A stretch of 64,000 nt of DNA from an uncultured Ignavibacteria bacterium (GTDB taxonomy: Bacteria; Bacteroidota; Ignavibacteria; Ch128b), in contig CALDZP010000034.1 of assembly GCA_937944105.1 (NCBI GenBank), positions 38,262 through 102,261 on the forward strand, written 5' to 3'. The notes under the pieces are model-generated. The model did no database searches. It had not been told where the DNA came from and saw only the letters and a list, made by a program, of their open reading frames with translations. The number at the start of each line of letters is the position of its first letter. The first letter of the stretch is position 1. The translations under genes were made by a program, and so were the position numbers. Of this stretch, positions 1-46,895 are shown piece by piece.

Positions 1-124
1 ACGCCACTGAAACCTTCCCATCCCGATTAAGATCGGAACAGTGGCATTTATCAATGGCTATACGCACTCACAGTTGCGGGGCAGTACCGGATTTTCACCG
101 GTTTCCCTTTTAACCAAGTGGACC
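1..124 (-). ncRNA. Cobalamin (B12) riboswitch; may extend slightly past the window edge; regulated gene is off-window to the left
   Basis: The reverse complement reads ...GGTTAAAAGGGAAACCGGTGAAAATCCGGTACTGCCCCGCAACTGTGAGTGCG...AAATGCCACTGTTCC...GGGATGGGAAGG...CAGTGG. It contains the conserved GGGAA, GGTGAAAATCC and GCnGCCCCGCAACUGUGA blocks, the B12-box GCCACUG, and P1 pairing CCACT/AGTGG. Confidence 0.8.
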
Positions 125-198
125 AGTAAAGTTTTCAATGAACTTAAACAAAGTTAATCAAATGATTATTCAAAAATCAAATTTTACTATTACTCAAA

Positions 199-1311
199 TT
201 AAATTAGTTTTAATTTCTTTTTAATTGATGGGCTGATAATATTGAAATAATAAGTGAGAGCTTCAGAAAACAAAATCATTAAAAACCACATTGCAATTAC
301 CCCAAGAACTGTTTCACCAACATTACATTTGTAACCTAAAAAGTCTTTTACTCCTCTGTTCCATGAACTCCCATATAAAAGCATCACGTGAACAACGTAA
401 ATCCACAGTGAATTTTTACTTGCATTGTATAAAAATTTTGGGATACGTTTTATATAAAGAGATAAAATAGAAAACAGGCTCCCAAAAATTAAAACTGTGC
501 CAAATCTTGCATAGAACAAAGCTGGACTTGTAGACCACAGTGTGCTCATATTAAAAAATATGATCTCCATGAAGTTAATTAAGAATGCTGATAGAATGAA
601 AATGATACCAATTTTTAATTGTACTTTTGTTAAGTGGATCATATTGCTGAGAAAATTTTTTCGCTGGAAATATATTCCAACGGCTCCGCCTAAAAACAAA
701 TAAGCTCCCCAGGGAAAAAGCGGAAAGAGAGAGCCGGTTCTCTGAGAAAACCATGAAGATATTTGAAGTGGGAAATGCTCTTCCCAATCCACAAGTGTTG
801 ATAACTGTCGACCAAGCACAAAAAGAATAGAAATTAATATTAAATATCTTGCTGCATCATATTTAAATTTTCTAGCAAGTATTTCCATAAAAAGAAAAAT
901 AATTAAACTTGCACCAATTAATTGTAAAATATCAATTGCATAAAATAGTTGAATCATTTGATATGTTACACTTTCCCAGTTGATAATAGTTGGAGTTGGT
1001 GATTTCATTAAGTAACCGATTACGATTAAAAGTAAAGCACGTTTAATAGTTTTGATCTTTATCTTTCTAAACTTTTCTTCTGAATCGGTTCTTCTGAATC
1101 TTACTCCGTAAATAAAACCTGATGCAAATAAAAATAGAGGAGCGGTTAAACCCCTGAAAAATAACCAGGTATTAAAACCTATCGAATCGGGTTTTCTAAA
1201 TTCGTTACTTAATAATACATCAACCGTATGTCCATGAACCATTAGAAAGATTGCGCAGAATCGCAGCAAATCAATATAAATTACTCTTTGTGACCTTAAA
1301 TCAGCTACCAT
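199..1311 (-). CDS. Polytopic membrane acyltransferase (acyltransferase-3 / DUF1624 HGSNAT-like)
   Basis: 370 aa, about 10 hydrophobic helices, N-terminal 'IDLLRFCAIFLMVHGH' motif typical of this family. Confidence 0.5.
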   Translation of the reverse strand: MVADLRSQRVIYIDLLRFCAIFLMVHGHTVDVLLSNEFRKPDSIGFNTWLFFRGLTAPLFLFASGFIYGVRFRRTDSEEKFRKIKIKTIKRALLLIVIGYLMKSPTPTIINWESVTYQMIQLFYAIDILQLIGASLIIFLFMEILARKFKYDAARYLILISILFVLGRQLSTLVDWEEHFPLQISSWFSQRTGSLFPLFPWGAYLFLGGAVGIYFQRKNFLSNMIHLTKVQLKIGIIFILSAFLINFMEIIFFNMSTLWSTSPALFYARFGTVLIFGSLFSILSLYIKRIPKFLYNASKNSLWIYVVHVMLLYGSSWNRGVKDFLGYKCNVGETVLGVIAMWFLMILFSEALTYYFNIISPSIKKKLKLI

Positions 1312-10248: not shown

Positions 10249-11751
10249 TCAGTCTTGCTTAATAAATTTGAAGATTTGTGTCTGGTATGGTTTCAAATCC
10301 AGATACAATCCATTATTTAACATTTCGTCTCCATCTCTTAAATATTCTTCGGAGCTTAATCTATCTTTGATTAAGAATCTTTTGCCAGCTAAATCGTAAC
10401 TTAAAATTTTTACTTTACATTGAGATTGATAGGGAGAAAGATTTATTACTACAAGATCTTTATTCATTTTATCGTCTTCATAAAGATAAATTATGAAATT
10501 GTAGAATGCTGGATTCCCTTCCCAGGCTGGAATTGGTTTTAAGATTTTAAAGTAGCCGTTCTTAATGGTAGAATTTTTAATGGATGAAAAAAGTAATTTA
10601 TAGAAATTAATCAACTCAGCGCTTTCTTGTTCTTTCTGAATTCTTCCTAATTGAAGTGCGTGATAAAATTTTCTACCTTCAATTTGTCCATCATAAATTA
10701 ATTTCATTGACGGTAAGGTATAAATTAAAGTGGCAACGGCTTTTAACTTTTCAATTTGAAATAGGTGTGCAGATCTTTGTTCATCATGATTTTCGATAAA
10801 TAAAAATCGCTTCTTCCGATATGAGAAAATTCTACTAATGTATTCATTTATAAAACCTATTGAATTTTCAAGAATCATATTATAAAGTTTTTTTTCATAA
10901 ACATAATCAAATCCTAAATCGAGCAAATCATTTTCTCTATCCCAGTAAACTTCAGCAATTAAAGTAAAATCAGGATTTTTATGTTTCAATTTTTTGATTG
11001 CTTCAAACCAGAATTCTTTTGCTAATGGAACATAATCATCGGGTAATGGATAATCTTTCCAATTTTCATAAAATATATCTGACAATAAAAGCATTGACAT
11101 ATCACATCGAAGCCCATCACATTTTTCCGATAACTTGAGTAGTTCTTTTATCATAAAATCACGAACTTTTTTTGAGCGATAGTCGAGTTGTAAAGTATCT
11201 TTCCAGACTGGGGAGTAAGGTTCTTTCCCATGAGCTAATAAATATTCCTTGCCTTTTATTTTTAATGAGATAAATTCGTTTGTTTTAGACTTGCTTAAGT
11301 TTTCTGATGCTTTAATAAAGAATTCAGGATGTTTTTTAACTACTGGACTATCAATTGCAAAATGATTTGGCACAAAATCCAGAATAATTTTTAGATCAAA
11401 TTTTTCAAGTAATAATTTTCTAAGTTTCTTATAAGATTCTTCTCCACCGAATTCTTTTGAAATTTTGTAGTTGGTAATTGCATAAGGTGAACCAATAACA
11501 TCTTCCACTTGCCAATCTGGTAATGATTCGAAATATCTTGTATGTAATTCTTTCATTGAGATAGAAATTTCTCTACTTACTTTGCTCGGTTCATAAATTC
11601 CTAAGATCCAGAGAAATTCAATTCCTAAATTTCTGAGATTTTCGAAAAAGTTGTTTGGGATATCGAAAAATGTTGGTTTATTTTTATTCGTTATGTTTAT
11701 TCTTCGAATGAATTCCCGAATATCAATTTGATATACTAATCTATGGTTCAT
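10249..11751 (-). CDS. GH13 alpha-amylase-family glycoside hydrolase
   Basis: GH13 regions I-IV: 'DFVPNHFA', 'GLRCDMSM', 'IAEVYWD', 'FIENHD'. Confidence 0.7.
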   Translation of the reverse strand: MNHRLVYQIDIREFIRRINITNKNKPTFFDIPNNFFENLRNLGIEFLWILGIYEPSKVSREISISMKELHTRYFESLPDWQVEDVIGSPYAITNYKISKEFGGEESYKKLRKLLLEKFDLKIILDFVPNHFAIDSPVVKKHPEFFIKASENLSKSKTNEFISLKIKGKEYLLAHGKEPYSPVWKDTLQLDYRSKKVRDFMIKELLKLSEKCDGLRCDMSMLLLSDIFYENWKDYPLPDDYVPLAKEFWFEAIKKLKHKNPDFTLIAEVYWDRENDLLDLGFDYVYEKKLYNMILENSIGFINEYISRIFSYRKKRFLFIENHDEQRSAHLFQIEKLKAVATLIYTLPSMKLIYDGQIEGRKFYHALQLGRIQKEQESAELINFYKLLFSSIKNSTIKNGYFKILKPIPAWEGNPAFYNFIIYLYEDDKMNKDLVVINLSPYQSQCKVKILSYDLAGKRFLIKDRLSSEEYLRDGDEMLNNGLYLDLKPYQTQIFKFIKQD

Positions 11752-11753: not shown

Positions 11754-13532
11754 TTAAATGGTGAAATATTTTGCTTCTGGATGATGAATAATAATTGCTG
11801 AAGTACTCTGTTCAGGTACCATTTGAAAACCATCTGTCAGTGTAACTCCAATTCTCTCAGGTCTTAAAAGTTTAAATAGTTTTGTCTGATCTTCAAGGTT
11901 AGGGCAAGCAGGATAACCAAAAGAGTATCTTGATCCACGATAACCCTGTTGAAAAAGTTTTTTAATATCCTTTGCATCTGCATAATCAATTTTTAGTTCT
12001 TCACGGATTTTTTTGTGCCAGTATTCTGCAAGTGCTTCGGCGGTTTCTACTGAAAGTCCATGAAAGAATAAATATTCAGAATACTGATTATTTGAGTAAA
12101 GATATTTAGAATATTCAGTTGCTTCATTTCCAACTGTTACAACATGAAAAGCAACAACATCAAATTTTCCACTTTCCACGGGCAAAACAAAATCTGAAAT
12201 ACATAAATTCTTTTTATCAACTTGTCTTGGAAAAGAAAAACGCACAAATTCTTCTAATTGAACTTTGGATAAATCTAAATCCCAGATGTCATATATTTTT
12301 TCATTATCCAAATTTTCAGGTTTATAAATTATTAAATCATTTTTGTCAGATTGTGCTGGGAAATATCCATAAACGACTTTTGGTTTGAGTAAATTATTTT
12401 CTTTTACTGTTCTCTTTAGTTTTTCATAAATAGGTAAGATTTTTTCTTCCACAAGTTTATTGTATTCTTCATCAGATATTTTTCTTTTTCTGAATTGCCA
12501 TTGACCTCTGAAGAGAGCTACTTCATTAATATATTTAAAGACTTCATCAAGTGGAATATCTTCAACAATTTTTACACCCCAGAATGGAGGTTGAGGGACT
12601 TCATCAAGTATGGATACACTTGATTTTTGAAAAGCTTTTTCTTCATCAAAGAATGCAAGTTTTGCATCACTACCAACGAGTGTATCAAGTATATCATCAT
12701 CAGTAATATCACTCTCAAGTTTTTTATCCTGTTTTATAAGTTCTTCTAAGTTATGTGACTTAATTTTTTCCATGAATTTTAATCCATCGAAAGCATCTTC
12801 GGCATATTCAACATATCCCTTATAAATTTTTTTCAGATCTTGTTCAACATATCTTCTTGTAAGAGCTGCGCCACCTAAAACTACAGGAATATGGAGTCCT
12901 TGTTCATTTAAGACTTCGAGGTTTTCTTTCATTATTAATGTTGATTTTACAAGTAAACCACTCATGCCAATTGCATCGGCATTTTGTTTTTCAAATTCTT
13001 CGATCATTTTTTCAACCGGACATTTTATTCCAAGATTATAAACAGTATAACCATTATTTGTTAGAATTATATCAACTAAATTCTTCCCTATGTCATGCAC
13101 GTCTCCTTTAACAGTTGCAAGAACAATTTTACCTTTAGATTCTCCCTGTTTCTTTTCCATAAATTTTTCAAGATAACCAACAGCTGATTTCATGACTTCG
13201 GCACTTTGCAAAACAAATGGAAGTTGCATCTGTCCGCTTCCGAAAAGTTCACCTACAATTTTCATCCCTTCCAGAAGTATTTTATTAATAATGTCTAAAG
13301 CTGAATATTTTTTAAGAGCTTCATCGAGATCTTCCTTTAATCCAATTTTTTCTCCATCTATAATTCTATTTTTTAATCTCTCCTCAACTGAAAGATCCTT
13401 TTTATTTGATTTCTCTTTGTCCTCTTCAGGTTTAGATGAATAATAGGCAATTAATTCCTGTAATGGATCGTAGACAACCTTTCTTTCTTTTTCTGCCATA
13501 ATTCTTGTGATTTTTGTTAATAATTTAAACAA
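11754..13532 (-). CDS. metH: Methionine synthase C-terminal half (B12-binding cap, B12-binding and AdoMet activation domains)
   Basis: 'GDVHDIGKN' (DxHxxG), 'MSGLL' (SxL), 'VVLGGAAL' (GG) cobalamin-binding motifs; activation-domain 'GYPACP' motif; 592 aa. Confidence 0.8.
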   Translation of the reverse strand: MFKLLTKITRIMAEKERKVVYDPLQELIAYYSSKPEEDKEKSNKKDLSVEERLKNRIIDGEKIGLKEDLDEALKKYSALDIINKILLEGMKIVGELFGSGQMQLPFVLQSAEVMKSAVGYLEKFMEKKQGESKGKIVLATVKGDVHDIGKNLVDIILTNNGYTVYNLGIKCPVEKMIEEFEKQNADAIGMSGLLVKSTLIMKENLEVLNEQGLHIPVVLGGAALTRRYVEQDLKKIYKGYVEYAEDAFDGLKFMEKIKSHNLEELIKQDKKLESDITDDDILDTLVGSDAKLAFFDEEKAFQKSSVSILDEVPQPPFWGVKIVEDIPLDEVFKYINEVALFRGQWQFRKRKISDEEYNKLVEEKILPIYEKLKRTVKENNLLKPKVVYGYFPAQSDKNDLIIYKPENLDNEKIYDIWDLDLSKVQLEEFVRFSFPRQVDKKNLCISDFVLPVESGKFDVVAFHVVTVGNEATEYSKYLYSNNQYSEYLFFHGLSVETAEALAEYWHKKIREELKIDYADAKDIKKLFQQGYRGSRYSFGYPACPNLEDQTKLFKLLRPERIGVTLTDGFQMVPEQSTSAIIIHHPEAKYFTI

Positions 13533-27032: not shown

Positions 27033-28850
27033 ATGAAAACATTTAATCAACTGCTGAAGGAAAAGGTATTAATATTTGACGGAGCTATGGGTACAAATCT
27101 TCAAGCTCAAAATCTTAGCTTTAATGATTTTGGTGGAAAGGAATATGAAGGTTGCAATGAATATTTAATCATTTCAAAACCTGACGCAGTAAAGAAAGTA
27201 CATCTGGATTTTCTTGAGGCTGGAGCTGATATAATTGAAACGAACACATTTGGTTCAAATGAAGTTGTGTTATCAGAATATAATTTACAAAATTTAGCAT
27301 ATGAGATCAGCTACAAGGCAGCAAAACTCGCAAAAGAACTGGCTTTAGATTTTTCATCGAATGAAAAACCAAGATTTGTTGCTGGTTCGATTGGTCCAGG
27401 GACAAAATTACCTTCATTAGGACACATATCATTTAAAGAACTCGAAAAATCATATTATCCTCAAATATCTGGGCTAGTTGATGGTGGCGCTGATATATTA
27501 TGTATCGAAACATGTCAGGATATGCTTCAAATTAAAGCTGCTCTCTCTGCTGCTATGAAAGTTTTTGATGAGAAAAAAACTAAACTACCAATTATTGTTT
27601 CAATTACAATTGAAACAACAGGAACAATGTTAATGGGAACTGATATTTCTGCAGCTTTAACAACTTTAGAACCTTATGAAATAATTGATGTTATAGGTAT
27701 GAACTGTGCCACTGGTCCAAAAGAGATGAGCGAAAATGTTCGTTACCTTTGTCAAAATTCGCCTAAACCTATTTTTGTGATGCCCAATGCAGGAATTCCA
27801 GAAAATGTTAATGGTAAAGCTTGCTATCATTTGAATCCTGATGAACTTGTTCACTGGTTGAGTCATTTTGTGAAAGATTTAGGTGTAAATATTGTTGGTG
27901 GCTGTTGTGGGACCACAAAAGAACATATAAAAAAATTAGTCGAAAATTTGTCAAATCTTAAACCAGCAGAAAGAAATTGGAGTTACCAACCTTCTGTATC
28001 CAGTAATTTTATCAGTCAATCTCTAAGAGTTGATCCAGCGCCTGTTTTAGTTGGTGAAAGATGTAATGCAAACGGTTCTAAACAATTTCGTGATTATTTA
28101 TTGAAAGATGATTATGAGGGAATGCTTCAAGTTGCAAAAGATCAAATTAAAGAGGGCGCACATATGATTGATGTTTGTGTTGCTTATGTTGGACGAGATG
28201 AAAAAAAAGATATGATTGAATTTGTTAAAAGATTAAATACTCAAGTTGTACTTCCTATTATGATCGATTCCACAGAATATGAAGTAATCGAAGCTGCTCT
28301 GGAAAATTATGCTGGTAGATGTGTAATTAATTCAATTAATTTGGAAGATGGAGAAGAAAGAACTTCAAAGGTTTTACCACTTGCGAAAAAGTTTGGTGCA
28401 GCGGTTATATGCTTAACAATTGATGAAGAAGGAATGGCAAAAACTGCTGAAAAAAAACTGGCTATTGCCAAAAGAATAAGAGATATAGCAGTAAAAAGAT
28501 TCGGTCTAAGGGAATCTGATTTAATTTTTGATCCATTAACATTCACTCTTGGCAGTGGAGATGAGGAATTTCGTAAAAGTGCAATTGAAACCCTTGAAGC
28601 AATAAAATTGATTAAAAAAGAAATTCCAAATTCCTTTACGATTCTTGGAATTAGTAATGTATCATTTGGTTTGAATCCTAAAGCAAGGCATGCTCTTAAT
28701 TCAGTCTTTCTATATTATGCAGTGCAGGCTGGACTTGATCTGGCAATAGTTCATGCGAGTAAAATCATGCCTCTTAACAAAATTGATGATCGTGGTAAAA
28801 AACTTTGCGAGGAATTAATTTTTGATAAGAGAATTTTTGAATATTCTTAG
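27033..28850 (+). CDS. metH: Methionine synthase N-terminal half (homocysteine-binding plus pterin/methyl-THF-binding domains)
   Basis: 'LIFDGAMGT' Hcy S-methyltransferase start, 'GGCCG'; pterin-binding TIM barrel 'VGERCNANGSKQF...MIDVC'; 605 aa; ends where the B12-cap would begin. Confidence 0.8.
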   Translation: MKTFNQLLKEKVLIFDGAMGTNLQAQNLSFNDFGGKEYEGCNEYLIISKPDAVKKVHLDFLEAGADIIETNTFGSNEVVLSEYNLQNLAYEISYKAAKLAKELALDFSSNEKPRFVAGSIGPGTKLPSLGHISFKELEKSYYPQISGLVDGGADILCIETCQDMLQIKAALSAAMKVFDEKKTKLPIIVSITIETTGTMLMGTDISAALTTLEPYEIIDVIGMNCATGPKEMSENVRYLCQNSPKPIFVMPNAGIPENVNGKACYHLNPDELVHWLSHFVKDLGVNIVGGCCGTTKEHIKKLVENLSNLKPAERNWSYQPSVSSNFISQSLRVDPAPVLVGERCNANGSKQFRDYLLKDDYEGMLQVAKDQIKEGAHMIDVCVAYVGRDEKKDMIEFVKRLNTQVVLPIMIDSTEYEVIEAALENYAGRCVINSINLEDGEERTSKVLPLAKKFGAAVICLTIDEEGMAKTAEKKLAIAKRIRDIAVKRFGLRESDLIFDPLTFTLGSGDEEFRKSAIETLEAIKLIKKEIPNSFTILGISNVSFGLNPKARHALNSVFLYYAVQAGLDLAIVHASKIMPLNKIDDRGKKLCEELIFDKRIFEYS

Positions 28851-34037: not shown

Positions 34038-35534
34038 ATGTTTTTCAATTGTTTAAAAAATTTTTTACAAATTTTAGTTCTCTTTTTACTTTTTTCTTTG
34101 AAATTATATTCTCAAGTGGGTTCAGAATTCCCAATTGAAGTAGGACCAGATTCTTGTTTTGCAACAGGGTATGCTCAAGATGATGTGAAGTATGCAATCG
34201 TAATGAGAAGAGAAAAAGGATTAAGTGGTGCTGATATTGTAGTTCAATTCCATTCGAAGGCAGATCATTCATTAATTGGCACCCCAATAAAAGTTGGTTC
34301 AACGGTTGTTCCAGTAAATTTGTTTGATGAAGCTATACCCCAGATTGCTTTCGATGGGATGCGTTATCTTATAGTGTGGAGTGATATTATGAATGGTGGG
34401 ATTAAATACCGATTTATTAATTCTCAGACATTTGAGTTAAGTCAACTTTATTCTGATTCAACTCTTTCTGTAGTGCTTAGTGGAAATTGTTTACACTTTA
34501 ATTCAAATACCAATAGATATCTTCTTGTATCGGGGATTAATAGTCAATCAGGTATTTATCTTATTTATAATTTCATAACCACGACAGGAAATATTTCAAG
34601 TTCAAGTCAATTAGTCAATTTTCCAACCAGAAAAGATATAAGTCTTTCTTATGCATTGGGAAAATATTTAATATGTTTTGTTAAAAAAGATCCACTATAT
34701 TCTGACCATGATGTTTATGGACAGTTACTTGATGAAAATGGTACTCTTGTAGGTTCACCTTTTGCTATTGATATTAATCAGTATCCAAGTGATAATCCAA
34801 TTTTTGTTACTTTTGATGGTAAATATTTTGTTTGTTTTTTCCCTGATGAGGAACCAACAGGATGGAAACTTTATGCTAAAAGAATTGCACCAAATGGTTC
34901 CGTCTGGCATAACCGATATTTAATCTCCGATGATTTTTCACTATTACCCTTTGCTTCTATAGGAAATGGAAAAATGCTCGTAACATGGATTAAATTACCA
35001 ATTACTGGTATTGGATATATGAAAGGTAGATTTTTTAATACCAACCTTGATGGAATTGGAAGCGAATTTGTAATTTTTTATCCATTTAACATCAAATTTC
35101 CTTTAAGTAATACATCTGTATTTTCAGGTGAAAAATATTTTTGTTACACTACTCTTGCTAAAATTGTAATTGGTCCAGATTCATCAATTTATCCTATAGA
35201 TGGTGATATTTATGGAACAACAGTTCTGGATCCTACACTTATAGAAAAAGATGAAAGTAATCCTAATTTATGCATATTATATCAAAATTATCCCAATCCA
35301 TTTAATCCATTGACAAAAATTAAATTTTATATAAAAGAAGATGGTTTTACTACCTTAAAACTGCTCAATTTAATCTCAGAAGAAATATGTACTATCGTTT
35401 CTGATTATTTATCAGCTGGTGATTATGAATTCACTCTGAATCCATCTGAGTTTGGTTTAAATAGCGGAATTTATTTTGCACAATTAACTTCAGGACGATA
35501 TAAGGCAACAATAAAGTTAGTATATCTAAAGTAA
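34038..35534 (+). CDS. Secreted hypothetical protein with T9SS C-terminal sorting domain
   Basis: Signal peptide; C-terminal 'LYQNYPNPFNP...GIYFAQL'. Confidence 0.5.
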   Translation: MFFNCLKNFLQILVLFLLFSLKLYSQVGSEFPIEVGPDSCFATGYAQDDVKYAIVMRREKGLSGADIVVQFHSKADHSLIGTPIKVGSTVVPVNLFDEAIPQIAFDGMRYLIVWSDIMNGGIKYRFINSQTFELSQLYSDSTLSVVLSGNCLHFNSNTNRYLLVSGINSQSGIYLIYNFITTTGNISSSSQLVNFPTRKDISLSYALGKYLICFVKKDPLYSDHDVYGQLLDENGTLVGSPFAIDINQYPSDNPIFVTFDGKYFVCFFPDEEPTGWKLYAKRIAPNGSVWHNRYLISDDFSLLPFASIGNGKMLVTWIKLPITGIGYMKGRFFNTNLDGIGSEFVIFYPFNIKFPLSNTSVFSGEKYFCYTTLAKIVIGPDSSIYPIDGDIYGTTVLDPTLIEKDESNPNLCILYQNYPNPFNPLTKIKFYIKEDGFTTLKLLNLISEEICTIVSDYLSAGDYEFTLNPSEFGLNSGIYFAQLTSGRYKATIKLVYLK

Positions 35535-37658: not shown

Positions 37659-37732
37659 TACCCCCGAGAGGATTCGAACCTCCGACACGCGGTTTAGGAA
37701 ACCGCTGCTCTATCCTACTGAGCTACGGGGGC
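37659..37732 (-). tRNA. tRNA-Arg (anticodon CCT)
   Basis: The reverse complement GCCCCCGTAGCTCAGTAGGATAGAGCAGCGGTTTCCTAAACCGCGTGTCGGAGGTTCGAATCCTCTCGGGGGTA folds as a cloverleaf with anticodon stem GCGGT/ACCGC, loop TTCCTAA and T-loop GGTTCGAATCC. Confidence 0.85.
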
Positions 37733-37848: not shown

Positions 37849-40134
37849 ATGAGTAGAATATATACATTATTTTTAATTGTAATTGTTTTGACTATTAATA
37901 GTTATTCCCAAATTAACACAGGTGAAATAAGAGGAAAGGTAATTGAAGCAAATAATAAACTTCCTATTCCTTTTGCAAATGTAATAGTTCTCGGAACAAA
38001 CATTGGTGCTTCAACTGATTTGCAAGGTAATTTTATTATTAAAAATGTTCCTGTAGGAATCTATCAAGTAAAAGCTTCGGTCATTGGTTATAATTCAGTT
38101 GTTAAAAGTGATGTTATGGTTAAATCTAATAAGATAACAGAAGTTGATTTTGAATTAGTTCAAAAGGTAATTGAAATTGATAATGTTGTTGTAAGAGCAG
38201 ATTATTTTGAAAAAAATTATTTAGAACCTGTAAGCGTTAGAAAATTTTCTCAAGAAGAAGTTAGAAGAAGTCCTGGTGGTTTCGAAGATGTTATTCGTGC
38301 CTTGAGTGTTTTGCCAGGAATAGCACAAGCAGATGCAGGTAGAAATGATCTAATTGTTCGTGGCGGTGCTCCTTCTGAAAATCTTTATGTAGTTGATGGT
38401 TTTGAAATACCAAATATAAATCATTTTGGTACTCAAGGTTCAACTGGTGGACCGATCAGTTTTATTAATCTCGATTTTGTTAAAGATGTTAGTTTTTCAA
38501 CTGGAGGATTTCCTGTTATTTATGGTGATAAAGTCTCTTCAACCTTAAATATAAATCTTCGAGAAGGTAATAATAGAAAATTTAATGGGAGAGGAACTCT
38601 TTCAGCTACTTTGTTTGGTTTTGATTTTGAAGGACCTGTTGTAAATGATAAACTATCAATGATTTTCTCAGCAAGAAGAAGTTATCTCGATTTTATCTTT
38701 AAAGCTGCAGGTTTTTCTTTTGTCCCTGAGTATTATGATATTTTAACAAAAGCTGATTATAAAATTGACAATAAAAATTCTGTGGGTTTTTTATTCATTA
38801 ATGCTATTGATAATGTAAAGTTTTTTAATGATAGTCCTGAAAAGAGAGTAAATAATTCAAGAATTCTTGGAAGTGATCAATTGCAATACGTATCCGGATT
38901 GAAATATCGTCGGTTATTTAGAGATGGATATATGGATTTGAAATTATACCGTAATTTCACTAAATATAATACGAGGCAAAGTGATTCATTACAGAATCCA
39001 ATATTTAAAAATATATCACTGGAAGAAGAAAATAATCTTCAGCTTGATGTAGTACATAAATTCTTCAAAAATCTTGAAATGAATTTTGGTATATCTTCTA
39101 AATTTATAGAATTCGATGCAGATATTTTATTCCCGAGTTTTGTTACATCACTAAAAGATACTTTACCCGATTTGAATTTAAACAAAAGTGAAAATTACTT
39201 TAAAGGGGCAACATATATTAATTTAAATTATCGAACATCAAATAAAATAATAACTAATTTTGGTTTGCGATTGGATTATTTTGATGCCATAAATAAAAAA
39301 TTTTATCTAAGTCCAAGATTTTCTGCTTCATATATTTTAAACGAATTTTTCTTTTTAAATTTTAGTGCGGGAATTTACAGACAATTTCCATCATACATAT
39401 GGCTTGTAGCCTATGATCAAAATAAAGATCTTAAAGCAATTAATGTAAACCAATTTGTACTAGGATTAGATTATTTATGGAGAGAAGATGCACAAATAAA
39501 AATCGAAGGATTTGTAAAAAATTATACTGATTATCCTGCAAGCTTAATAAGGCCATATTTAGTCCTAGCTAATACTGGTGCCGGTTTTTCAGGAAGTGAT
39601 GATAATTTCACTTCATTTGGCCTGGATCCATTGGTAAGTAAAGGTAAAGGCTTATCTCGAGGAGTTGAATTATCTGTCCAGAAGAAAATTTCGGAAATTC
39701 CCTGTTATGGAATTTTTAGTTTAACTTATTCCAAGTCAGACTTTTATGCACTTGATGGAATTAAGAGAAATAGTAATTACGATCAAAACTGGATAATTAA
39801 TTTAAGTGGTGGTTATAGATTTAATATGTACTGGGAAATTAGCACAAGATTTAGATTTTCTTCTGGTAGACCTTACACACCTTTTGATGATAATGGTATC
39901 CAGTACATATCAGAGGTAAATTCAAGAAGATTGAAATCAACACATTCTCTTGACATTCGCGTTGATAGAAGATGGTTATTGAAAAACTGGACTCTTATTA
40001 CATATATTGATATTCAAAATATATATAACAGGAGAAATTTAACCGGCATAAGATATGATAGAATTAAAGGTACAGTAGATGAGACTGCTTCAATAGGAAT
40101 TTTACCTTCAATAGGTATATTAGCTGAATTTTAA
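37849..40134 (+). CDS. TonB-dependent-receptor-like outer membrane protein with CarboxypepD_reg domain
   Basis: Signal peptide, CarbopepD_reg N-terminal, plug-like region, long beta-rich body ending in aromatic F. Confidence 0.6.
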   Translation: MSRIYTLFLIVIVLTINSYSQINTGEIRGKVIEANNKLPIPFANVIVLGTNIGASTDLQGNFIIKNVPVGIYQVKASVIGYNSVVKSDVMVKSNKITEVDFELVQKVIEIDNVVVRADYFEKNYLEPVSVRKFSQEEVRRSPGGFEDVIRALSVLPGIAQADAGRNDLIVRGGAPSENLYVVDGFEIPNINHFGTQGSTGGPISFINLDFVKDVSFSTGGFPVIYGDKVSSTLNINLREGNNRKFNGRGTLSATLFGFDFEGPVVNDKLSMIFSARRSYLDFIFKAAGFSFVPEYYDILTKADYKIDNKNSVGFLFINAIDNVKFFNDSPEKRVNNSRILGSDQLQYVSGLKYRRLFRDGYMDLKLYRNFTKYNTRQSDSLQNPIFKNISLEEENNLQLDVVHKFFKNLEMNFGISSKFIEFDADILFPSFVTSLKDTLPDLNLNKSENYFKGATYINLNYRTSNKIITNFGLRLDYFDAINKKFYLSPRFSASYILNEFFFLNFSAGIYRQFPSYIWLVAYDQNKDLKAINVNQFVLGLDYLWREDAQIKIEGFVKNYTDYPASLIRPYLVLANTGAGFSGSDDNFTSFGLDPLVSKGKGLSRGVELSVQKKISEIPCYGIFSLTYSKSDFYALDGIKRNSNYDQNWIINLSGGYRFNMYWEISTRFRFSSGRPYTPFDDNGIQYISEVNSRRLKSTHSLDIRVDRRWLLKNWTLITYIDIQNIYNRRNLTGIRYDRIKGTVDETASIGILPSIGILAEF

Positions 40135-40162: not shown

Positions 40163-41638
40163 ATGAAAAATGTTGCAATAATTGGCGCTGGACTTGGAGG
40201 ATTAGCTACTGCCTTAAGGTTATCTCAGAATGGTTTTTCTGTGAAAGTAATTGAAAAAAATAACAAAGCTGGTGGAAGACTTAATCAATTAAAATTAGAT
40301 GGATTTACTTTTGATGTTGGTCCATCTTTTATGAGTATGACTTATGAATTGGACGAATTATTTTTTTACATCAATGAAAAGAATCCATTAGTTCTTGAAC
40401 CACTTGATCCCTTATACAATGTTTTTTTTGAAGGTAGAAAAAAACCATTCAAATTATGGAAAGATCTTGATAAACTTCAAAATGAATTTGCTGATGTCGA
40501 AAAGAATCTTGTTGAAAAGTTAGAAAATTTTCTAAATAATGCAAAAGAATTCTTTCATGATACAGAGTACAGAGTAGTTAAGCAAAATTTTGAAAATAAA
40601 TTGGATTATATACTAAAATTAAGTAAAGTACCTAAAAAACATATTCCTTATCTTTTCAAAACTGTTTGGAGCGAAGTTTCAAAGCATTTTGAAAGTAATG
40701 AGCTAAGAGTAATTTTTTCTCTGGTTGCATTTTTTTTAGGATCAACGCCATTCAAAACCCCAGCTATTTATACATTATTAAATTATACAGAGATGAGACA
40801 CAATGGTTATTGGAGAATTTCTGGAGGAATGTATCGACTTGTTGAAGTTATTCTGAATATTCTAAGACAACGTAAAATTGAATTTATTTTTAATACAGAA
40901 ATAGTAGGATACAAAGCGAATAAAAATAGAGTTGATTATCTAATAGATCAGAATGGAAATCATCATTATGCAGATTTGTTTGTTATAAATTCCGATGCAG
41001 CATTTTTTAGAGGCAAAGTCTTAGGACGAAAGAAATATTCTGAAAAAAATCTTAACAGAATGGATTGGACAATGGCGCCATTCACAGTTTATTTAGGTGT
41101 AAAAGGTAAAATAGAACAGTTAGAATTACATAATTATTTTCTTGGAAATGATTTCCAATCATATGCAAATAAAATTTTTACTTCCACACACAGCCCCAAT
41201 AAACCTTACTACTATGTTAATGTTTTAAGTAAATCTGAACCTGATTCGGCGCCGCCAGATTGTGAAAATATTTTTATACTCTGTCCAGTTCCTGATTTGA
41301 GATTTAAAAGTGATTGGTCTGATACTCAAGAATTTGCAGATAACATCATTGAAGATTTATCACGAAGAATTGATTTTGACATCAAATCAAATCTTAAAGT
41401 TATGAGAATCTATAATCCGATTGATTGGCAAAATATGTTTAATTTATACAAAGGTTCCGGTTTGGGATTGGCTCATGGAATTAATCAAGTGGGTGCTTTT
41501 CGTCCAAGTAATAAAGATGAAGAGTTTAGTAATTTGTATTATGTTGGTGCTTCTACAATTCCAGGAACAGGTTTGCCAATGGTTATAATTAGCTCAAAAC
41601 TCGTAACCGAAAGGATTCTGAATGATTCAACTTTATGA
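40163..41638 (+). CDS. crtI: Phytoene desaturase (CrtI family)
   Basis: 'VAIIGAGLGGLATALRL...GGR' FAD dinucleotide fold; C-terminal CrtI signature 'GASTIPGTGLPMV'. Confidence 0.75.
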   Translation: MKNVAIIGAGLGGLATALRLSQNGFSVKVIEKNNKAGGRLNQLKLDGFTFDVGPSFMSMTYELDELFFYINEKNPLVLEPLDPLYNVFFEGRKKPFKLWKDLDKLQNEFADVEKNLVEKLENFLNNAKEFFHDTEYRVVKQNFENKLDYILKLSKVPKKHIPYLFKTVWSEVSKHFESNELRVIFSLVAFFLGSTPFKTPAIYTLLNYTEMRHNGYWRISGGMYRLVEVILNILRQRKIEFIFNTEIVGYKANKNRVDYLIDQNGNHHYADLFVINSDAAFFRGKVLGRKKYSEKNLNRMDWTMAPFTVYLGVKGKIEQLELHNYFLGNDFQSYANKIFTSTHSPNKPYYYVNVLSKSEPDSAPPDCENIFILCPVPDLRFKSDWSDTQEFADNIIEDLSRRIDFDIKSNLKVMRIYNPIDWQNMFNLYKGSGLGLAHGINQVGAFRPSNKDEEFSNLYYVGASTIPGTGLPMVIISSKLVTERILNDSTL

Positions 41639-42464
41639 AAAAGTAAGTTTCGATACCAGTAAATTAGTTACAACAAAGTACTCAACTTCTTTTAGTCTTG
41701 GTATATTAACTCTGGATAAAAAATTAAGGAAACATATTTACGCAATTTATGGTCTAGTTAGAATTGCTGATGAAATTGTTGATACTTTCCATCATCTTGA
41801 TAAAAAGAAATTGCTAGACGAACTGAAAAATGAAACTTATAAATCCATTAGTAATAGATTCTCGTCTAACTTAGTTCTTAATTCATTCCAGATAACAGTC
41901 AATGAATATAAGATACCCAAAGAATTAATTGATGCATTTTTCCATTCAATGGAGATGGATACATATAAAAATAATTTTAGTCGAGAAGATTATGATAAAT
42001 ATGTTTATGGATCAGCGGAAGTAGTTGGCTTAATGTGTCTTAAAATTTTTGTTGATGGCGATGAAGATAAGTATAAAGAACTAAGAGAGTATGCTCGAGC
42101 ACTTGGTTCAGCTTTTCAGAAAGTAAATTTTCTTAGAGATATTGGTAGTGATTTAAATGATCGTCATAGGATTTACATTCCTGAAGTGCCAGAAGTTAGT
42201 GAAATAACAAATGAAGAAAAACAAAAACTAGTTCAGGAAACCGAAAGAGAATTTAGTTTAGCTCTTGAAGGAATTAAAAGGTTACCCAATTCTGCAAAGT
42301 TGGGTGTCTATTCTACTTACTTGTATTACTTGGCTTTGCTAAGAAAAATCAAGAAAAAGCAATTAGACTACTTATTAAGTAGAAGAGTAAGAGTTAATAA
42401 TTTTCACAAAATTTTACTTTTACTAAAAGCTTTTTTACAGGTTAAGGTTTTAAAATTAATATGA
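41622..42464 (+). CDS. crtB: Phytoene synthase
   Basis: 'YAIYGLVRIADEIVD' and 'YVYGSAEVVGLM', 'RDIGSDL' squalene/phytoene synthase motifs. Confidence 0.8.
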   Translation: MIQLYEKVSFDTSKLVTTKYSTSFSLGILTLDKKLRKHIYAIYGLVRIADEIVDTFHHLDKKKLLDELKNETYKSISNRFSSNLVLNSFQITVNEYKIPKELIDAFFHSMEMDTYKNNFSREDYDKYVYGSAEVVGLMCLKIFVDGDEDKYKELREYARALGSAFQKVNFLRDIGSDLNDRHRIYIPEVPEVSEITNEEKQKLVQETEREFSLALEGIKRLPNSAKLGVYSTYLYYLALLRKIKKKQLDYLLSRRVRVNNFHKILLLLKAFLQVKVLKLI

Positions 42465-42997
42465 TTTCAATTATTCTAATTTTTATTTTTCTTTTTAAGT
42501 CTTTTCCCGATTACAATTCCAGTGAAAAAGAATTGATCAGGCGTTTATTTTATTTTTCTATAGAGTCCAAAGATACTCTTAAAATTTTTGAAGATAAATT
42601 AAAAAAAATAGATAAAGAATTAGACTCCAACTTTAAAGATGCGTATTACGGAGCTTATCTAACTTTAGTAGCTAAACATTCAATAAATCCTTACACTAAG
42701 TACTTTAAATTAAAGGAAGGTTTAGAATTCTTAAATAAATCAATTAAAAATGATCCTGAAAAACTTGAGTTTAGATTCTTAAGATTATCTATACTAAATT
42801 ATGTGCCTTCTTTTTTAGGTTTTGACAATTTTTTTTATGAAGATTACAGACAAATAAAAAATCTAATAATAAAGAAAGATTATACCGAACTTGATAGAAA
42901 AATTCATAAAGGTATTCTTGAATTTTTGTTGCGAAGTCAAAAAATAAGTGAAGATGAAAAACATTTCTTAGGGAATATTTATAAAGACTTTAAATGA
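42461..42997 (+). CDS. Hypothetical protein embedded in carotenoid operon
   Basis: 178 aa; N-terminal hydrophobic segment; start and stop both overlap the flanking crt genes. Confidence 0.3.
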   Translation: MISIILIFIFLFKSFPDYNSSEKELIRRLFYFSIESKDTLKIFEDKLKKIDKELDSNFKDAYYGAYLTLVAKHSINPYTKYFKLKEGLEFLNKSIKNDPEKLEFRFLRLSILNYVPSFLGFDNFFYEDYRQIKNLIIKKDYTELDRKIHKGILEFLLRSQKISEDEKHFLGNIYKDFK

Positions 42998-43668
42998 CTG
43001 ATTATTCAATTATTCTTATCTCAACAATTATAATCCCGTTTATTTTTTCATTTGAGAAAAAAGTTAATTTTATTAGTAAAATAAAAACTGTTCTAAAGGT
43101 TATTTTTATTGTTTTTATTCCTTACATCATCTGGGATATTGTTTTTACAAATTACAGTGTTTGGGGATTTTCTGAGGAAAAAGTTTCCAGATTAAAGATT
43201 TTATCATTACCAATTGAAGAGCATTTATTTTTCTTTTGCATACCTTACACTTTAATTTTTATATATGAAGTTATTAATTTTTATTTAATTGATTCCAAGC
43301 TGAAATTTAATCACAATTTTGCTTTATTATTTGGTATTATCCTTCTAACAATTGCGATAATAACTTATCCAAAAGCATATACATCATTACAATTTTTAAT
43401 TACATCAATTTTGTCTTTTTATATTTGGCTAAAAAAGTTGGAGATATTTTTATCAAAAAATTTCTGGATTTTTATTATTGTCTCTTTCATTGGCTTTATT
43501 GTAATTAATTATTTCTTGACATCAATACCTATTGTTGTTTACAATAGTTCACAAATTCTTGGCATAAGAATTCTTACAATTCCAGTTGAGGATTTCTTTT
43601 ATCATTTCACTCTTACAACCGTTCTGATAATTTTGTATAAATCTTTTCATAGATTAAATGAAAAATAA
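42994..43668 (+). CDS. Lycopene cyclase domain protein (fused CrtYc/CrtYd type)
   Basis: 224 aa polytopic; two 'PxE(E/D)' motifs ('LPIEEHLFF', 'IPVEDFFYH') characteristic of the lycopene-cyclase domain. Confidence 0.6.
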   Translation: MTDYSIILISTIIIPFIFSFEKKVNFISKIKTVLKVIFIVFIPYIIWDIVFTNYSVWGFSEEKVSRLKILSLPIEEHLFFFCIPYTLIFIYEVINFYLIDSKLKFNHNFALLFGIILLTIAIITYPKAYTSLQFLITSILSFYIWLKKLEIFLSKNFWIFIIVSFIGFIVINYFLTSIPIVVYNSSQILGIRILTIPVEDFFYHFTLTTVLIILYKSFHRLNEK

Positions 43669-45133
43669 AATTATCATAATTGGTTCCGGATTTGGTGGAT
43701 TATCTGCTGCAATACATCTTGCTGCAAAAGGATATGAAGTTACTATCTTTGAAAAAAATAGTAAACTGGGTGGTAAAGCAGGTGAAATTGTTGAACAAGG
43801 TTTTCGTTTTGATACTGGACCGACTTTGTTGACTATGCCATTTGTTCTAGAAAATTTATTCAATGTAGGCAATTTTAATATTAATGATTTTATTTCGATC
43901 AAATCAAAAGATATTGTGACAAAATATTTTTTTAATGATGGTACAAATTTTTATCAATATTTTAATAGAGATAGACTTCTCTTAGAATTTGAAAAAGTTT
44001 GCCCAAATTCATCTGCTGAATTTATCAAGTTTATTAATTACTCAAAAAAAATTTATGATTTAACCGCCGAATTATTTTTATTTCAACCTTTTCTTGAAAT
44101 TAAAAATATTCTTCAACTGAAGAGCTTAAAGACATTATTTAAAATTAACCGAATTGATCCGTTTAGAACTGTTCATAATGCTAATAATGGTTTTTTTAAG
44201 GACAAAAAGTTTGTACAACTCTTTGATAGGTTTGCTACCTATAATGGTTCCAATCCATTCAAAGCACCAGCAACATTAAATATTATCCCATTTGTTGAAT
44301 TTGAATTTGGGGGTTACTTTGTTGAAGGAGGAATTTATAGAATTATTAATGCTCTTGAGAAGATAGCTCAAAAATTGGAAGTAAAAATTTATAAATCTTC
44401 AAATGTTGAGAAGATCTTGGTTAAAAATCAAAAGGTTGAAGGGATACTTATAGATGGAGAAAAATTTGACGCTCAAATTATAATTTCAAACTCCGATTTG
44501 TTCAATACCTACAAGTTATTGATTGGAGATGTGAAAAATTCTGAAGCTAATAAATATATAAAACAAGAGTTATCTACTTCGGCAATAATATTTTACTGGG
44601 GTGTAAGTACAAACTCTGAAAATTTAGAAATGGATAACATTCTTTTCTCAGAAGACTACCAGAAAGAATTTCATCAATTATTTGATCAGAAAGTTGTTCC
44701 AAACGATCCAACAATTCACATACATATATCGTCGAAAAAAAATTTTTTAGATGCTCCCAAAGGTTTTGAAAATTGGTATGTAATGATTAATGCACCTTCA
44801 ATTAATAAACAAAACTTTGATATTGAAGAAATAAGAGAAAGAGTTTTACAAAAGATCAAAAAAATGACTAAGATTGATTTAAGTAATAAAATTGTTTTTG
44901 AAAAATTTAAAACTCCATTAATGCTTGAAGAGGAAACATCAGGTTTATATGGCAGTCTTTATGGTCCCTCACACAACAGATTTTACTCAGCTTTTTTAAG
45001 ACAGAGAAATAAATCTTCTGTTATTGATGGTTTATATTTTTGTGGGGGGACTGTTCATCCTGGTGGGGGAATACCATTAGCAATTCTTTCGGGTAAAATT
45101 GTATCAGAAATTGTAGATAAGAACTTGAGATGA
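43658..45133 (+). CDS. CrtI-family carotenoid desaturase/ketolase paralog (CrtD- or CrtO-like)
   Basis: 'IIIIGSGFGGLSAAIHL...GGK' FAD fold; C-terminal 'GGTVHPGGGIPLA'. Confidence 0.65.
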   Translation: MKNKIIIIGSGFGGLSAAIHLAAKGYEVTIFEKNSKLGGKAGEIVEQGFRFDTGPTLLTMPFVLENLFNVGNFNINDFISIKSKDIVTKYFFNDGTNFYQYFNRDRLLLEFEKVCPNSSAEFIKFINYSKKIYDLTAELFLFQPFLEIKNILQLKSLKTLFKINRIDPFRTVHNANNGFFKDKKFVQLFDRFATYNGSNPFKAPATLNIIPFVEFEFGGYFVEGGIYRIINALEKIAQKLEVKIYKSSNVEKILVKNQKVEGILIDGEKFDAQIIISNSDLFNTYKLLIGDVKNSEANKYIKQELSTSAIIFYWGVSTNSENLEMDNILFSEDYQKEFHQLFDQKVVPNDPTIHIHISSKKNFLDAPKGFENWYVMINAPSINKQNFDIEEIRERVLQKIKKMTKIDLSNKIVFEKFKTPLMLEEETSGLYGSLYGPSHNRFYSAFLRQRNKSSVIDGLYFCGGTVHPGGGIPLAILSGKIVSEIVDKNLR

Positions 45134-45783
45134 TCGAAGCTAAACATAATGAGTTTTTTAGAAAAATTTTTAATGTTTATATCGATTGGCAACTGAAAAA
45201 ATATTTTAACAATTTCTATTTGATTGATGAATTGAATATTGAAGCTAAGGACGATTCATTATTAGTATTGCCTAATCATTTTTCATGGTGGGATGGTTTC
45301 TTCGTTGACTTGATTTACCGAAAATTATTTAGTGATTACAAATTATACATGATGGTGCTTGAAGAGACAATTAAAAAATTTTGGTTTTTCAATCATATTG
45401 GCGCTTTTACTATAAATCCAAAAAATCCAAAAGATATAAATAAATCTTTTAACTACGCTGCTAAGTTATTAAAAGGAACGAAAAATTTTGTTGTTATTTT
45501 TCCACAAGGGGAATTACACGCTTATTCGACTAAAGTAAACTTGAAAAAAGGAGTAATTGATTTGATTATTAACGGAAATTGTGAATCTAATCTACTTATG
45601 CTGGCAATGAAAATACTCTATTTAAATGAAAAAAAGCCTGATGTATTTTTTCATTGTAAATTTTCAAAAGCTTTTGATTACAGATTTGAAGGACAAAAAT
45701 TTGTTGATGATTTTAATGAAAATATCTTAAATCTCGAGACAAAAATTTCTGATCCAAATTATAAAAAAATTAAGTTATTATGA
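45130..45783 (+). CDS. LPLAT-family acyltransferase (CruD-like carotenoid glycoside acyltransferase candidate)
   Basis: 'PNHFSWWDG' (HxxxxD) and 'FPQGE' acyltransferase motifs; position in the operon. Confidence 0.55.
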   Translation: MIEAKHNEFFRKIFNVYIDWQLKKYFNNFYLIDELNIEAKDDSLLVLPNHFSWWDGFFVDLIYRKLFSDYKLYMMVLEETIKKFWFFNHIGAFTINPKNPKDINKSFNYAAKLLKGTKNFVVIFPQGELHAYSTKVNLKKGVIDLIINGNCESNLLMLAMKILYLNEKKPDVFFHCKFSKAFDYRFEGQKFVDDFNENILNLETKISDPNYKKIKLL

Positions 45784-46895
45784 TTGATTTTTTATTTTGT
45801 GCTCTTTTATCGTTAAACATTTTTTTTATATTAATTGTATTATTTAATTTTTTCTCGCCTTTAAATCTACAGGTTCCTAAGTCAACCAAGTTAAGCCTAG
45901 AAAAAAATATTTCTGTTTTAATTCCAGCAAGAAATGAAGAAGATAATATTAAAAATTGTCTTGAGGATGTTTTTAAGCAAGATCTTGAACATAAAGAAGT
46001 TATTTGTTTAGATGATGATTCTACAGATGACACCCTTAATGTTTTGTTGGATCTCAAAAAGAGATATGGAGAGTTAAGAATTATACAAGGTAAGGAGTTG
46101 CCTGATGGTTGGACAGGTAAAAATTGGGCTTGTTATCAACTGGCAGTAAATTCAACAGGAGATTTTTTGGTTTTTATTGATGCTGATGTTAGATTGAAAA
46201 AATTTGCAATAAAGTCAGCTATTTCATTGATGGAAAAATATGATATTAAAATGTTGTCAATATTTCCCACTCAAGTTATGAGAACAATTGGAGAATATCT
46301 GATAGTCCCATTGATGAATTGGTTTTTACTTACTTTTCTTCCTTTAATATTCGTTCGAAAAATTTCTCATTCTTCGTTTGTTGCTGCTAATGGCCAGTTT
46401 ATGATTTTTCGAAGAGATGCTTATTTCAAAATAGGAGGTCATCAGGCGGTTAAAAATAAAATCGTTGAAGATATGGAATTAGCCAGGTTAATGAAAAAAA
46501 ATAATTGTAGGATTATGACATTATTAGGAGGAGATTTAGTAACTGCAAGAATGTATAATAGCTTTTTAGATGGATTAAATGGTTTTTCAAAAAATTTTTT
46601 CTCAGGGTTCAATACCAGTTATTTTAAATTTTCATTCTTTCTGTTTTTCATTTTAATTGTTTTTTTAACACCGTTTTTGTTAGTGTTTATTGATGTAAAG
46701 TTTTTCATTGTAGTGGGATTGATTTTAATACAGAGAGTTTTGATTTCTAAAAAATCAAATCAGAACATTTTTATAAATCTGCTTTTATTACCTTTGCAAT
46801 TATTAATGGTCTTAGTTATTGGAATTAGATCAATGATTTTAACTAACAGAGGTGAATTAAATTGGAAAGGGAGAAATTTAAGTCACATAAAATAA
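45780..46895 (+). CDS. Family-2 glycosyltransferase (CruC-like carotenoid glycosyltransferase candidate)
   Basis: 'VLIPARNEEDNI', 'LDDDSTD' GT2 motifs; C-terminal TM helices. Confidence 0.65.
   Translation: MIDFLFCALLSLNIFFILIVLFNFFSPLNLQVPKSTKLSLEKNISVLIPARNEEDNIKNCLEDVFKQDLEHKEVICLDDDSTDDTLNVLLDLKKRYGELRIIQGKELPDGWTGKNWACYQLAVNSTGDFLVFIDADVRLKKFAIKSAISLMEKYDIKMLSIFPTQVMRTIGEYLIVPLMNWFLLTFLPLIFVRKISHSSFVAANGQFMIFRRDAYFKIGGHQAVKNKIVEDMELARLMKKNNCRIMTLLGGDLVTARMYNSFLDGLNGFSKNFFSGFNTSYFKFSFFLFFILIVFLTPFLLVFIDVKFFIVVGLILIQRVLISKKSNQNIFINLLLLPLQLLMVLVIGIRSMILTNRGELNWKGRNLSHIK

Follow-up and report, generated by a model that had tools for sequence, protein, structure and literature searches.

We examined a 64,000-nucleotide (nt) stretch of DNA (hereafter, the window) from an uncultured Ignavibacteria bacterium (GenBank assembly GCA_937944105.1, contig CALDZP010000034.1, positions 38,262 to 102,261 of the forward strand). 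At its left edge, the minus strand carries most of a cobalamin riboswitch that points out of the window, next to an acyltransferase gene (window 199-1311, minus; Acyl_transf_3/HGSNAT_cat). The protein of this acyltransferase open reading frame (ORF) is identical on four public metagenome contigs. To follow the riboswitch beyond the edge, we used L001, which comprises the ORF plus 10 kb on each side and was taken from a 247.8-kb ENA contig. L001 is the reverse complement of the window, such that window position w corresponds to L001 position 11312 - w. The two sequences have 36 differences in 11,311 nt, none of which falls in window 1-369, the riboswitch, or its candidate promoter, and the leader is identical wherever both can be read. 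The window and L001 are very close strains or alternative assemblies.

On L001, the aptamer is followed by an expression platform, a gene for a 670-amino-acid (aa) TonB-dependent receptor, a gene for a 349-aa DUF5074 protein, a terminator, and convergent genes. We consider it very probable that the element is the riboswitch of a btuB-btuG operon and that it serves as a B12 OFF switch.

The aptamer and its probable promoter

The whole window was scanned against Rfam with cmscan, for which the gathering score of the Cobalamin family (RF00174) is 31.5 bits. RF00174 matched window 142..1 on the minus strand with 79.3 bits (E = 6.7e-18). This match spans model positions 1-145 of 189, with the 3′ end of the RNA cut by the window edge. 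The complete copy lies at L001 11170-11350 and matches model positions 1-189 with 119.6 bits (E = 6.7e-30). An earlier annotation made from the letters of the window (the sequence-only reading) had recognized that the left edge carries a minus-strand cobalamin riboswitch; the score, well above the gathering score, confirms this, and every sequence block that it listed is present. Its extent of 1-124 was too short. The aptamer begins near window 142 and extends ~39 nt beyond the edge of the window (L001 11312-11350), where the 3′ strands of P3 and P1 are located. The core blocks on the minus strand are GGGAA (107-103), GGUGAAAAUCC (99-89), GCCCCGCAACUGUGA (82-68), the B12 box GCCACUG (45-39), and GGGAAGG (19-13).

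To characterize conservation, we collected related loci. Querying species-representative genomes with the BtuG homologue returned four loci, all from metagenome-assembled genomes of Ignavibacteria/Ignavibacteriaceae (75-82% identity), and a metagenome scan added six more close relatives, three with enough upstream sequence. We compared eight leaders, L001 and seven relatives with sufficient flank, which are related sequences and a small sample. A full-length RF00174 match (116-126 bits) was found just upstream of btuB-btuG in 7/7 of these relatives, and hence, with L001 included, in 8/8 genomes. The blocks GGGAA, GGUGAAAAUCC, GCCCCGCAACUGU, GCCACUG, and GGGAAGG are invariant across the eight leaders.

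Pairing was taken from the RNAalifold consensus. The Rfam consensus structure projected onto the eight-leader alignment was dropped, owing to non-canonical pairs near P3/P6 that arose from Infernal insertions. Compensatory double changes occur in 14 of the 83 predicted pairs. P1, P4, and the P6 arm account for all of them, and the P6 arm for the majority. In P1, relatives carry a compensatory A-U to G-C change, recovered with five leaders and again with eight. P4 has two pairs with compensatory changes (C-G to G-C or U-A), and at the P2 site one relative (L010) has CUU...AAG, which keeps the pairing despite changed bases. These assignments revise the sequence-only reading, which had taken CCACU/AGUGG for P1. 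CCACU (121-117) is part of P2, and AGUGG (8-4) pairs with CCAUU (56-52) to close the P6 extension, whereas the true P1 is CUUUACUGGU/GCCAGUAAAG. The features of the leader that lie within the window, all on the minus strand, are as follows.

1..142, minus: in-window portion of the aptamer (RF00174, 79.3 bits, cut at the 3′ end; full copy on L001)
122..131, minus: 5′ strand of P1, CUUUACUGGU, which pairs with GCCAGUAAAG at L001 11331-11340, off-window (Rfam alignment and RNAalifold)
114..121, minus: minimal P2 hairpin, CC-ACUU-GG (Rfam alignment)
86..102, minus: P4 hairpin, ACCGG-UGAAAAU-CCGGU, in the GGUGAAAAUCC block (Rfam alignment and eight-leader RNAalifold)
75..83, minus: P5/L5, UG-CCCCG-CA (Rfam alignment; invariant in the eight leaders)
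39..45, minus: core of the B12 box, GCCACUG (invariant in the eight leaders)
2..67, minus: P6 and its peripheral extension, GUGCG...CCAUUGA...GCC-ACUGUUCCGAUC/GAUCGGGAUGG...GGU...UCAGUGG...GU (RNAalifold); the closing 3′ strand, UUGCAC, extends off-window
149..157, minus: candidate -7 promoter element, TTAACTTTG, of the Bacteroidota type TAnnTTTG (156-149), 6-7 nt before the conserved leader start
178..181, minus: candidate -33 promoter element, TTTG, which precedes the -7 box by 21 nt (four bases only, weak)

Judging by homology, window 1-142 (minus) makes up the first three-quarters, from the 5′ end, of a cobalamin riboswitch of class-I type (P6-extended), which presumably binds a corrinoid ligand. 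We take the peripheral extension of P6 as the mark of class-I architecture, with a predicted selectivity of the adenosylcobalamin (AdoCbl) type. Because only a 3′-cut copy is visible within the window, one might suppose that the match is a decayed, nonfunctional remnant or a chance resemblance at the edge. We give this idea virtually no credence. The E values of both the cut and the full copies speak against it, as does the fact that the element, together with its compensatory changes, has been kept in eight genomes whose noncoding flanks are unconserved.

The leader probably has its own promoter, as suggested by a conserved -7-like box and a TTTG ahead of it. The -7 candidate reads TTAAnTTTG in each of the first five leaders, where it is surrounded by unconserved sequence, and it is kept in seven of the eight, being shifted in L015. 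Both candidates fit the promoter consensus of Bacteroidota, including Bacteroides (-7 TAnnTTTG, -33 TTTG), which we assume here to apply to Ignavibacteria.

The genes downstream of the riboswitch

The sequence-only reading had expected the regulated gene to lie off-window within about 300 nt and to encode, most likely, a B12 or corrinoid transporter. Both expectations are supported by L001, where the first downstream ORF starts 104 nt past the aptamer end (ATG at L001 11454) and the two genes are homologues of btuB and btuG. The product of the first gene, the 670-aa receptor, contains the domains PF07715 (Plug) and PF00593 (barrel), both above the Pfam cut-off. In a search against all solved structures, its best matches were BtuB3, BtuB1, and BtuB2 of Bacteroides thetaiotaomicron (8p98_A, 8p97_A, 8blw_A, and 8bmx_C; E values from 1.6e-28 to 6e-27), compared with an E value of 1.5e-5 for Escherichia coli BtuB. 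On sequence similarity, the receptor is a Bacteroides-type BtuB homologue rather than an enterobacterial BtuB equivalog; to the latter it would be a distant homologue and a functional analogue.

The btuG start codon (L001 13467) abuts the btuB stop codon (13466). Residues 33-338 of the 349-aa product match DUF5074 (PF16819) with 66.2 bits (cut-off, 27.2), and residues ~30-347 match the BtuG1, BtuG2, and BtuG3 chains with E values between 1e-24 and 4e-16. The top structures were 8blw_B (1.3e-24), 8ptd/8ptf (2.5e-24), 8p97_B (6e-19), and 8bmx_D (1e-18), and further solved BtuG structures were also matched (3dsm, 8bai, 8baz, 8okv, and 8puj). The identities of these BtuB and BtuG chains are those given by the depositing papers (PMC10404256; bioRxiv 10.1101/2024.02.16.580637). 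The best relatives of the two proteins are therefore the two chains of the same BtuB-BtuG complexes.

The BtuG homologue has the N-terminus MKAKNLIIIFVLSVLFYS-C19-SKDNS, a lipoprotein signal that ends in LFYS-C, and its C19 aligns with the lipidated Cys32 of BtuG2. Residues S18, C19, S20, K21, and N23 are invariant in five BtuG homologues. The polar corrin-contact motifs of blades 1-3 (NEG, GD.A(N/Q)SM, and SPR) are retained. Among the corrin-contacting residues, Glu55/Gly56 correspond to E40/G41, Ser131 and its neighboring Arg to S118 and R120, Gln93 to N78, Gln219 to N202, and Tyr316 to Y298, and Phe60 of BtuG1 maps to Y43.

Despite these similarities, the receptor and the β-propeller could import something other than a corrinoid, such as another metallo-tetrapyrrole or a metal complex, or the DUF5074 protein could be a generic YncE-like propeller unrelated to B12. 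Three observations lend themselves to this explanation. The receptor falls far under the NCBIfam cut-offs for BtuB equivalogs (54.3 versus 599.7 bits for TIGR01779 and 33.9 versus 836 for NF007926), the DUF5074 protein weakly matches YncE, PQQ-associated, and hydrazine-synthase propellers, and five pocket residues of BtuG2 (Trp149, Trp194, Ser195, Tyr239, and Trp272) are replaced in the homologue, although the alignment of the C-terminal blades is unreliable. However, pocket residues also vary among bona fide BtuG1, BtuG2, and BtuG3 (bioRxiv 10.1101/2024.02.16.580637), and the polar motifs are kept. Furthermore, the BtuB-BtuG chains lead the next families by ~20 orders of magnitude in E value, and in all eight genomes the tightly coupled btuB-btuG pair stands behind a B12 sensor. 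A non-corrinoid substrate or a generic propeller is thus very unlikely in our judgment. With the aromatic residues of BtuG2 partly lost and the polar contacts kept, homology and context point to the 349-aa lipoprotein as a putative B12 binder.

Gene order around the riboswitch is stable. The arrangement MscL-acyltransferase-riboswitch-btuB-btuG was kept in all four genome loci checked with tblastn (L007-L010). Between L001 and these loci, aa identity was 46-61% for BtuB, compared with 75-82% for BtuG, 81-87% for the acyltransferase, 89% for an ATP-binding cassette (ABC) protein, and 85-90% for MscL; the low value for BtuB suggests accelerated evolution of a surface-exposed receptor. Among more distant BtuG-like matches (L017-L021; 25-31% identity), no RF00174 match was found in the available flanks, most of which are on short contigs. 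One of these, L017 (metagenome contig Ga0310786_10006091), encodes a BtuG-like protein with 28% identity and has no RF00174 match within 4 kb upstream. A larger operon could have its riboswitch at a greater distance, or this paralogue could be under different regulation.

Past btuG, a strong terminator with a 14-bp stem is located at L001 14547-14578. Tail-to-tail with btuG, a gene pair for a half-transporter ABC exporter of the MsbA/SmdAB-like type occupies L001 14586-18130 (minus) and is kept in L007 and L008. We considered whether this pair might be an exporter-fold B12 importer like Rv1819c and rejected the idea. Its matches are generic MsbA/SmdAB-type ones, below every equivalog cut-off, and the pair lies on the opposite strand beyond the strong terminator, with nothing that ties it to B12.

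The expression platform and predicted switching

Three hairpins follow P1 in the leader, namely P13, a spacer hairpin (hairpin B), and a terminator. P13 (L001 11344-11376) consists of GAAAC..UU..CCUUC, the G-rich loop GAGGGAAAG, and the 3′ strand GAAGGUUUC, with a bulge on the 5′ side that is predicted to comprise 2 nt or, in an alternative register, 6 nt. In hairpin B (L001 11377-11396), variation is limited to A-U to G-U and C-G to U-G changes. The terminator hairpin, AAAACCUCUUC-ACUC-GAAGAGGUUUU (L001 11397-11422), has an 11-bp stem with four G-C pairs and is followed by the U-tract UUUUGUUUU, which extends to L001 11432, a canonical geometry for an intrinsic terminator. The hairpin ends 30 nt ahead of the btuB start codon.

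Folding of partial transcripts pointed to two alternative states. When the 3′ end of the transcript is at 11404-11412, the 5′ strand of the terminator has emerged and the 3′ strand has not. At this stage, the minimum free energy (MFE) fold is no longer P13 plus hairpin B (-17.9 kcal/mol) but an antiterminator (-22.5 kcal/mol). In this thermodynamic prediction, AGGUUU in the 3′ strand of P13 (11370-75) pairs with AAACCU in the 5′ strand of the terminator (11398-11403), and the resulting helix is stacked on hairpin B. Once the platform is complete, the terminator fold differs by no more than 0.3 kcal/mol from a fold that pairs both strands of P13 with both strands of the terminator (-34.4 versus -34.7). 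We also found complementarity between the loops. L5 (CCCCG, window 81-77) can form three contiguous G-C pairs with L13 (GAGGGAAAG). The sole change in L13, from A to G in L011 and L015 (GGGG), brings the number of possible pairs to four. Apart from this change, the two loops are invariant, and hence provide no covariation.

The platform is more strongly conserved than the aptamer. Across the eight leaders, invariant columns make up 31/33 of the terminator and 26/33 of P13, compared with 105/163 of the aptamer, 8/21 of hairpin B, and 5/28 of the segment between terminator and start codon. The platform was still invariant after the three metagenome leaders had been added. Greater invariance of the platform than of the aptamer is expected if each base serves two alternative pairings.

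We hypothesized that these elements form a switch that acts on transcription. When a corrinoid occupies the aptamer, L5 (CCCC, window 81-78) would kiss the G-rich L13 and lock P13, the 11-bp terminator would then form, and transcription would stop 30 nt short of the start of btuB. Under corrinoid scarcity, P13 would be unlocked, leaving AGGUUU to pair with AAACCU as an antiterminator stacked on the spacer hairpin. RNA polymerase would then read through into btuB-btuG, leading to greater capture of B12 at the outer membrane, with BtuB acting as a TonB-dependent outer-membrane B12 transporter and BtuG as a surface lipoprotein "lid" that captures corrinoids. The predicted direction of regulation follows a published scheme (PMC10327014), in which a P13 3′ strand that pairs with the 5′ strand of the terminator, rather than sharing its sequence, indicates an OFF switch. 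The sequence analysis establishes the family of the RNA, which genes follow it and in which order, their conservation in relatives, the terminator, and the competing pairings, whereas ligand binding, the kissing loop, how and in which direction regulation acts, use of the promoter, and B12 binding by BtuB and BtuG are inferred, and termination is a prediction.

It is possible to imagine a genuine riboswitch on btuB-btuG that acts mainly on translation initiation, in which case the hairpin with the U-tract would not be the regulatory element. There is precedent for this: cobamide riboswitches of B. thetaiotaomicron have been described as repressing translation (review, PMC13616437), and the kissing-loop/P13 modules of E. 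coli btuB and env8 gate a hairpin at the ribosome-binding site (RBS; PMC10327014). The leader examined here looks different. The start codon (L001 11454) and the preceding 30 nt are in no predicted helix with the aptamer or P13, and this stretch is A-rich, poorly conserved (the 5/28 columns above), and without a Shine-Dalgarno sequence, which together favor transcription attenuation over translational control. In contrast, the hairpin and U-tract have the geometry of an intrinsic terminator and are nearly invariant, and complementarity between the 3′ strand of P13 and the 5′ strand of the terminator is the design of repressing transcriptional riboswitches (PMC10327014). Taking everything together, we regard transcription attenuation as likely and translational control as improbable.

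Besides the equivalog scores and pocket substitutions described above, several points weigh against our interpretation. The helices of P13, the antiterminator, and the kissing loop are invariant in the eight leaders and so give no covariation support, and the invariance of the platform could also reflect close kinship of the genomes. The register of P13 is ambiguous, and RNAfold favors the one that partly buries the GGG of L13. The putative kissing loop would have only three contiguous G-C pairs (four in two relatives). With respect to the promoter, the call rests on a short motif, and there is no terminator between the acyltransferase stop codon (window 199) and the aptamer, such that read-through transcription is possible. 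Last, btuFCD is missing from the vicinity (the window and 10 kb beyond).

Corrinoid use and other contents of the window

Window ORFs were scanned against Pfam. Exact matches on public contigs were absent for the ORFs at 54792-56438 and 34038-35534 and confined to short contigs for those at 40163-41638 and 51980-54769. Both halves of the B12-dependent methionine synthase MetH that the sequence-only reading had named were identified by their domains. The first (window 11754-13532, minus; 581/592 aa) contains B12-binding_2, B12-binding, and Met_synt_B12, which correspond to the cap, B12-binding, and reactivation modules. The second (window 27033-28850, plus; 605 aa) contains S-methyl_trans, for homocysteine, and Pterin_bind. 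The two genes are ~13.5 kb apart on opposite strands. Neither cob/cbi genes nor a second riboswitch was found in the window and the 10 kb beyond, the same range that lacks btuFCD. The sequence-only reading had described the organism as tuned to exogenous corrinoids, a statement that the window can address only in part. A B12-dependent MetH and a predicted B12-repressed uptake module support the use of exogenous corrinoids, which is a reasonable conclusion within the scope of the window and the 10 kb beyond.

The rest of the window and of the 10 kb beyond has no evident connection to B12. The only other Rfam match in the window is a tRNA gene at 37659-37732 (minus; RF00005, 65.9 bits). A dnaA gene at 49539-51047 (plus; DnaA_N, Bac_DnaA, and Bac_DnaA_C), together with a cumulative GC skew that rises across the window, indicates that the chromosomal origin may be close. 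A carotenoid biosynthesis cluster at ~40163-47503 (plus) includes two phytoene-desaturase-like amino oxidases, SQS_PSY, a lycopene cyclase domain, an acyltransferase, a GT2 glycosyltransferase, and Caroten_synth. Three small DUF4402 proteins followed by ORFs of 158, 276, and 1192 aa without a Pfam match (48045-48578 and 56620-62532, plus) are possibly a cluster for a fimbria or an usher-like surface structure. Two TonB-dependent receptors of the CarboxypepD_reg type (37849-40134 and 51980-54769, both plus) have no riboswitch ahead of them; the second is followed by a protein with a type IX secretion system (T9SS) sorting domain (Por_Secre_tail).

Significance and comparison with known systems

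The RNA itself is an unremarkable, high-scoring member of RF00174, and the locus brings a textbook arrangement to a new lineage; current understanding is unchanged by it. A position ahead of btuB is classic for this riboswitch family, and in Bacteroides the order riboswitch-btuB-btuG is standard. What is slightly new is the occurrence of BtuG beyond Bacteroidetes, an operon cut to a two-gene core, and predicted termination with a highly conserved bistable platform. From a set of 313 gut genomes, BtuG was reported to be restricted to Bacteroidetes (PMC6143338). In the NCBI taxonomy, Ignavibacteria is placed in a separate phylum, Ignavibacteriota, inside the Bacteroidota/Chlorobiota group. In the literature library searched, no paper mentions both BtuG and Ignavibacteria, and DUF5074 occurs in two unrelated papers only.

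For the window, these results annotate the left edge as the predicted B12-repressed leader of an off-window btuB-btuG operon, with corrected helix assignments. More broadly, they suggest that BtuG-type corrinoid capture at the cell surface, so far studied in gut Bacteroides alone, is present along with its riboswitch in environmental Ignavibacteria that have a split MetH, which fits the idea that corrinoid scavenging matters outside the gut. We lean, without strong conviction, toward the view that the BtuB-BtuG "pedal-bin" operates in free-living Ignavibacteriota as a riboswitch-gated, two-gene module without btuFCD, btuH, or btuJ in cis, and that its bistable platform is kept near-invariant by dual pairing. 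If so, the locus would offer a compact natural model of how corrinoids switch transcription, as well as of the ancestral core of vitamin uptake assisted by a lipoprotein. The conserved platform also lends itself well to tests of the kissing-loop/antiterminator model beyond Firmicutes.

Compared with RF00174 as a whole, the aptamer has the same four-way junction core, B12 box, C-rich L5, and P6 extension, with a full-length match to the model. Its setting is the same as well, since members of the family are most often found ahead of B12 transport operons, in the 5′ leader. Apart from a P2 that has shrunk to a mini-hairpin of 2-3 bp, it is ordinary.

Among individual riboswitches, the closest parallel to the predicted mechanism is the metE leader of Priestia megaterium. 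There, a repressing platform has been proven by compensatory mutagenesis, and a ligand-dependent L5-L13 kissing loop stabilizes a bulged P13 (PMC10327014). Both leaders have a P13 weakened by an internal loop or bulge (predicted in our case), complementarity between the 3′ strand of P13 and the 5′ strand of the terminator, and, separating P13 from the terminator, a structured spacer capping the antiterminator; the L5-L13 loop pairing would be shared as well. In both, P13 and the terminator can coexist, which corresponds to a repressing design. The two differ in phylum, in the regulated gene (a transporter gene here, metE there), and in the kissing loop, which has three to four G-C pairs here as opposed to five contiguous ones in P. 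megaterium; the mechanism proposed for the Ignavibacteria leader is a prediction.

In terms of gene content, the closest parallels are loci 1-3 of B. thetaiotaomicron, where B12 represses btuBG loci via riboswitches (PMC6143338; PMC10404256). Like those loci, the one described here has a riboswitch and adjacent btuB-btuG genes, with a Bacteroides-type BtuB. The BtuG proteins are likewise DUF5074 β-propeller lipoproteins in which the lipidation Cys is followed by a charged segment resembling an export signal. However, the Ignavibacteria operon is a two-gene module that lacks btuFCD, btuH, btuJ, and btuK and has no BtuH fusion, its host is a low-GC environmental member of the Ignavibacteria rather than a gut Bacteroidota species, and its regulation is predicted to occur through transcription termination. 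The btuB leader of E. coli is similar in being a cobalamin riboswitch that represses the gene of an outer-membrane B12 receptor and in having an L5-L13 kissing loop, which is predicted for the leader examined here. In contrast, the riboswitch of E. coli works through an RBS hairpin, and thus on translation, and controls btuB alone, and the receptor of the Ignavibacteria operon is only a distant relative of E. coli BtuB.

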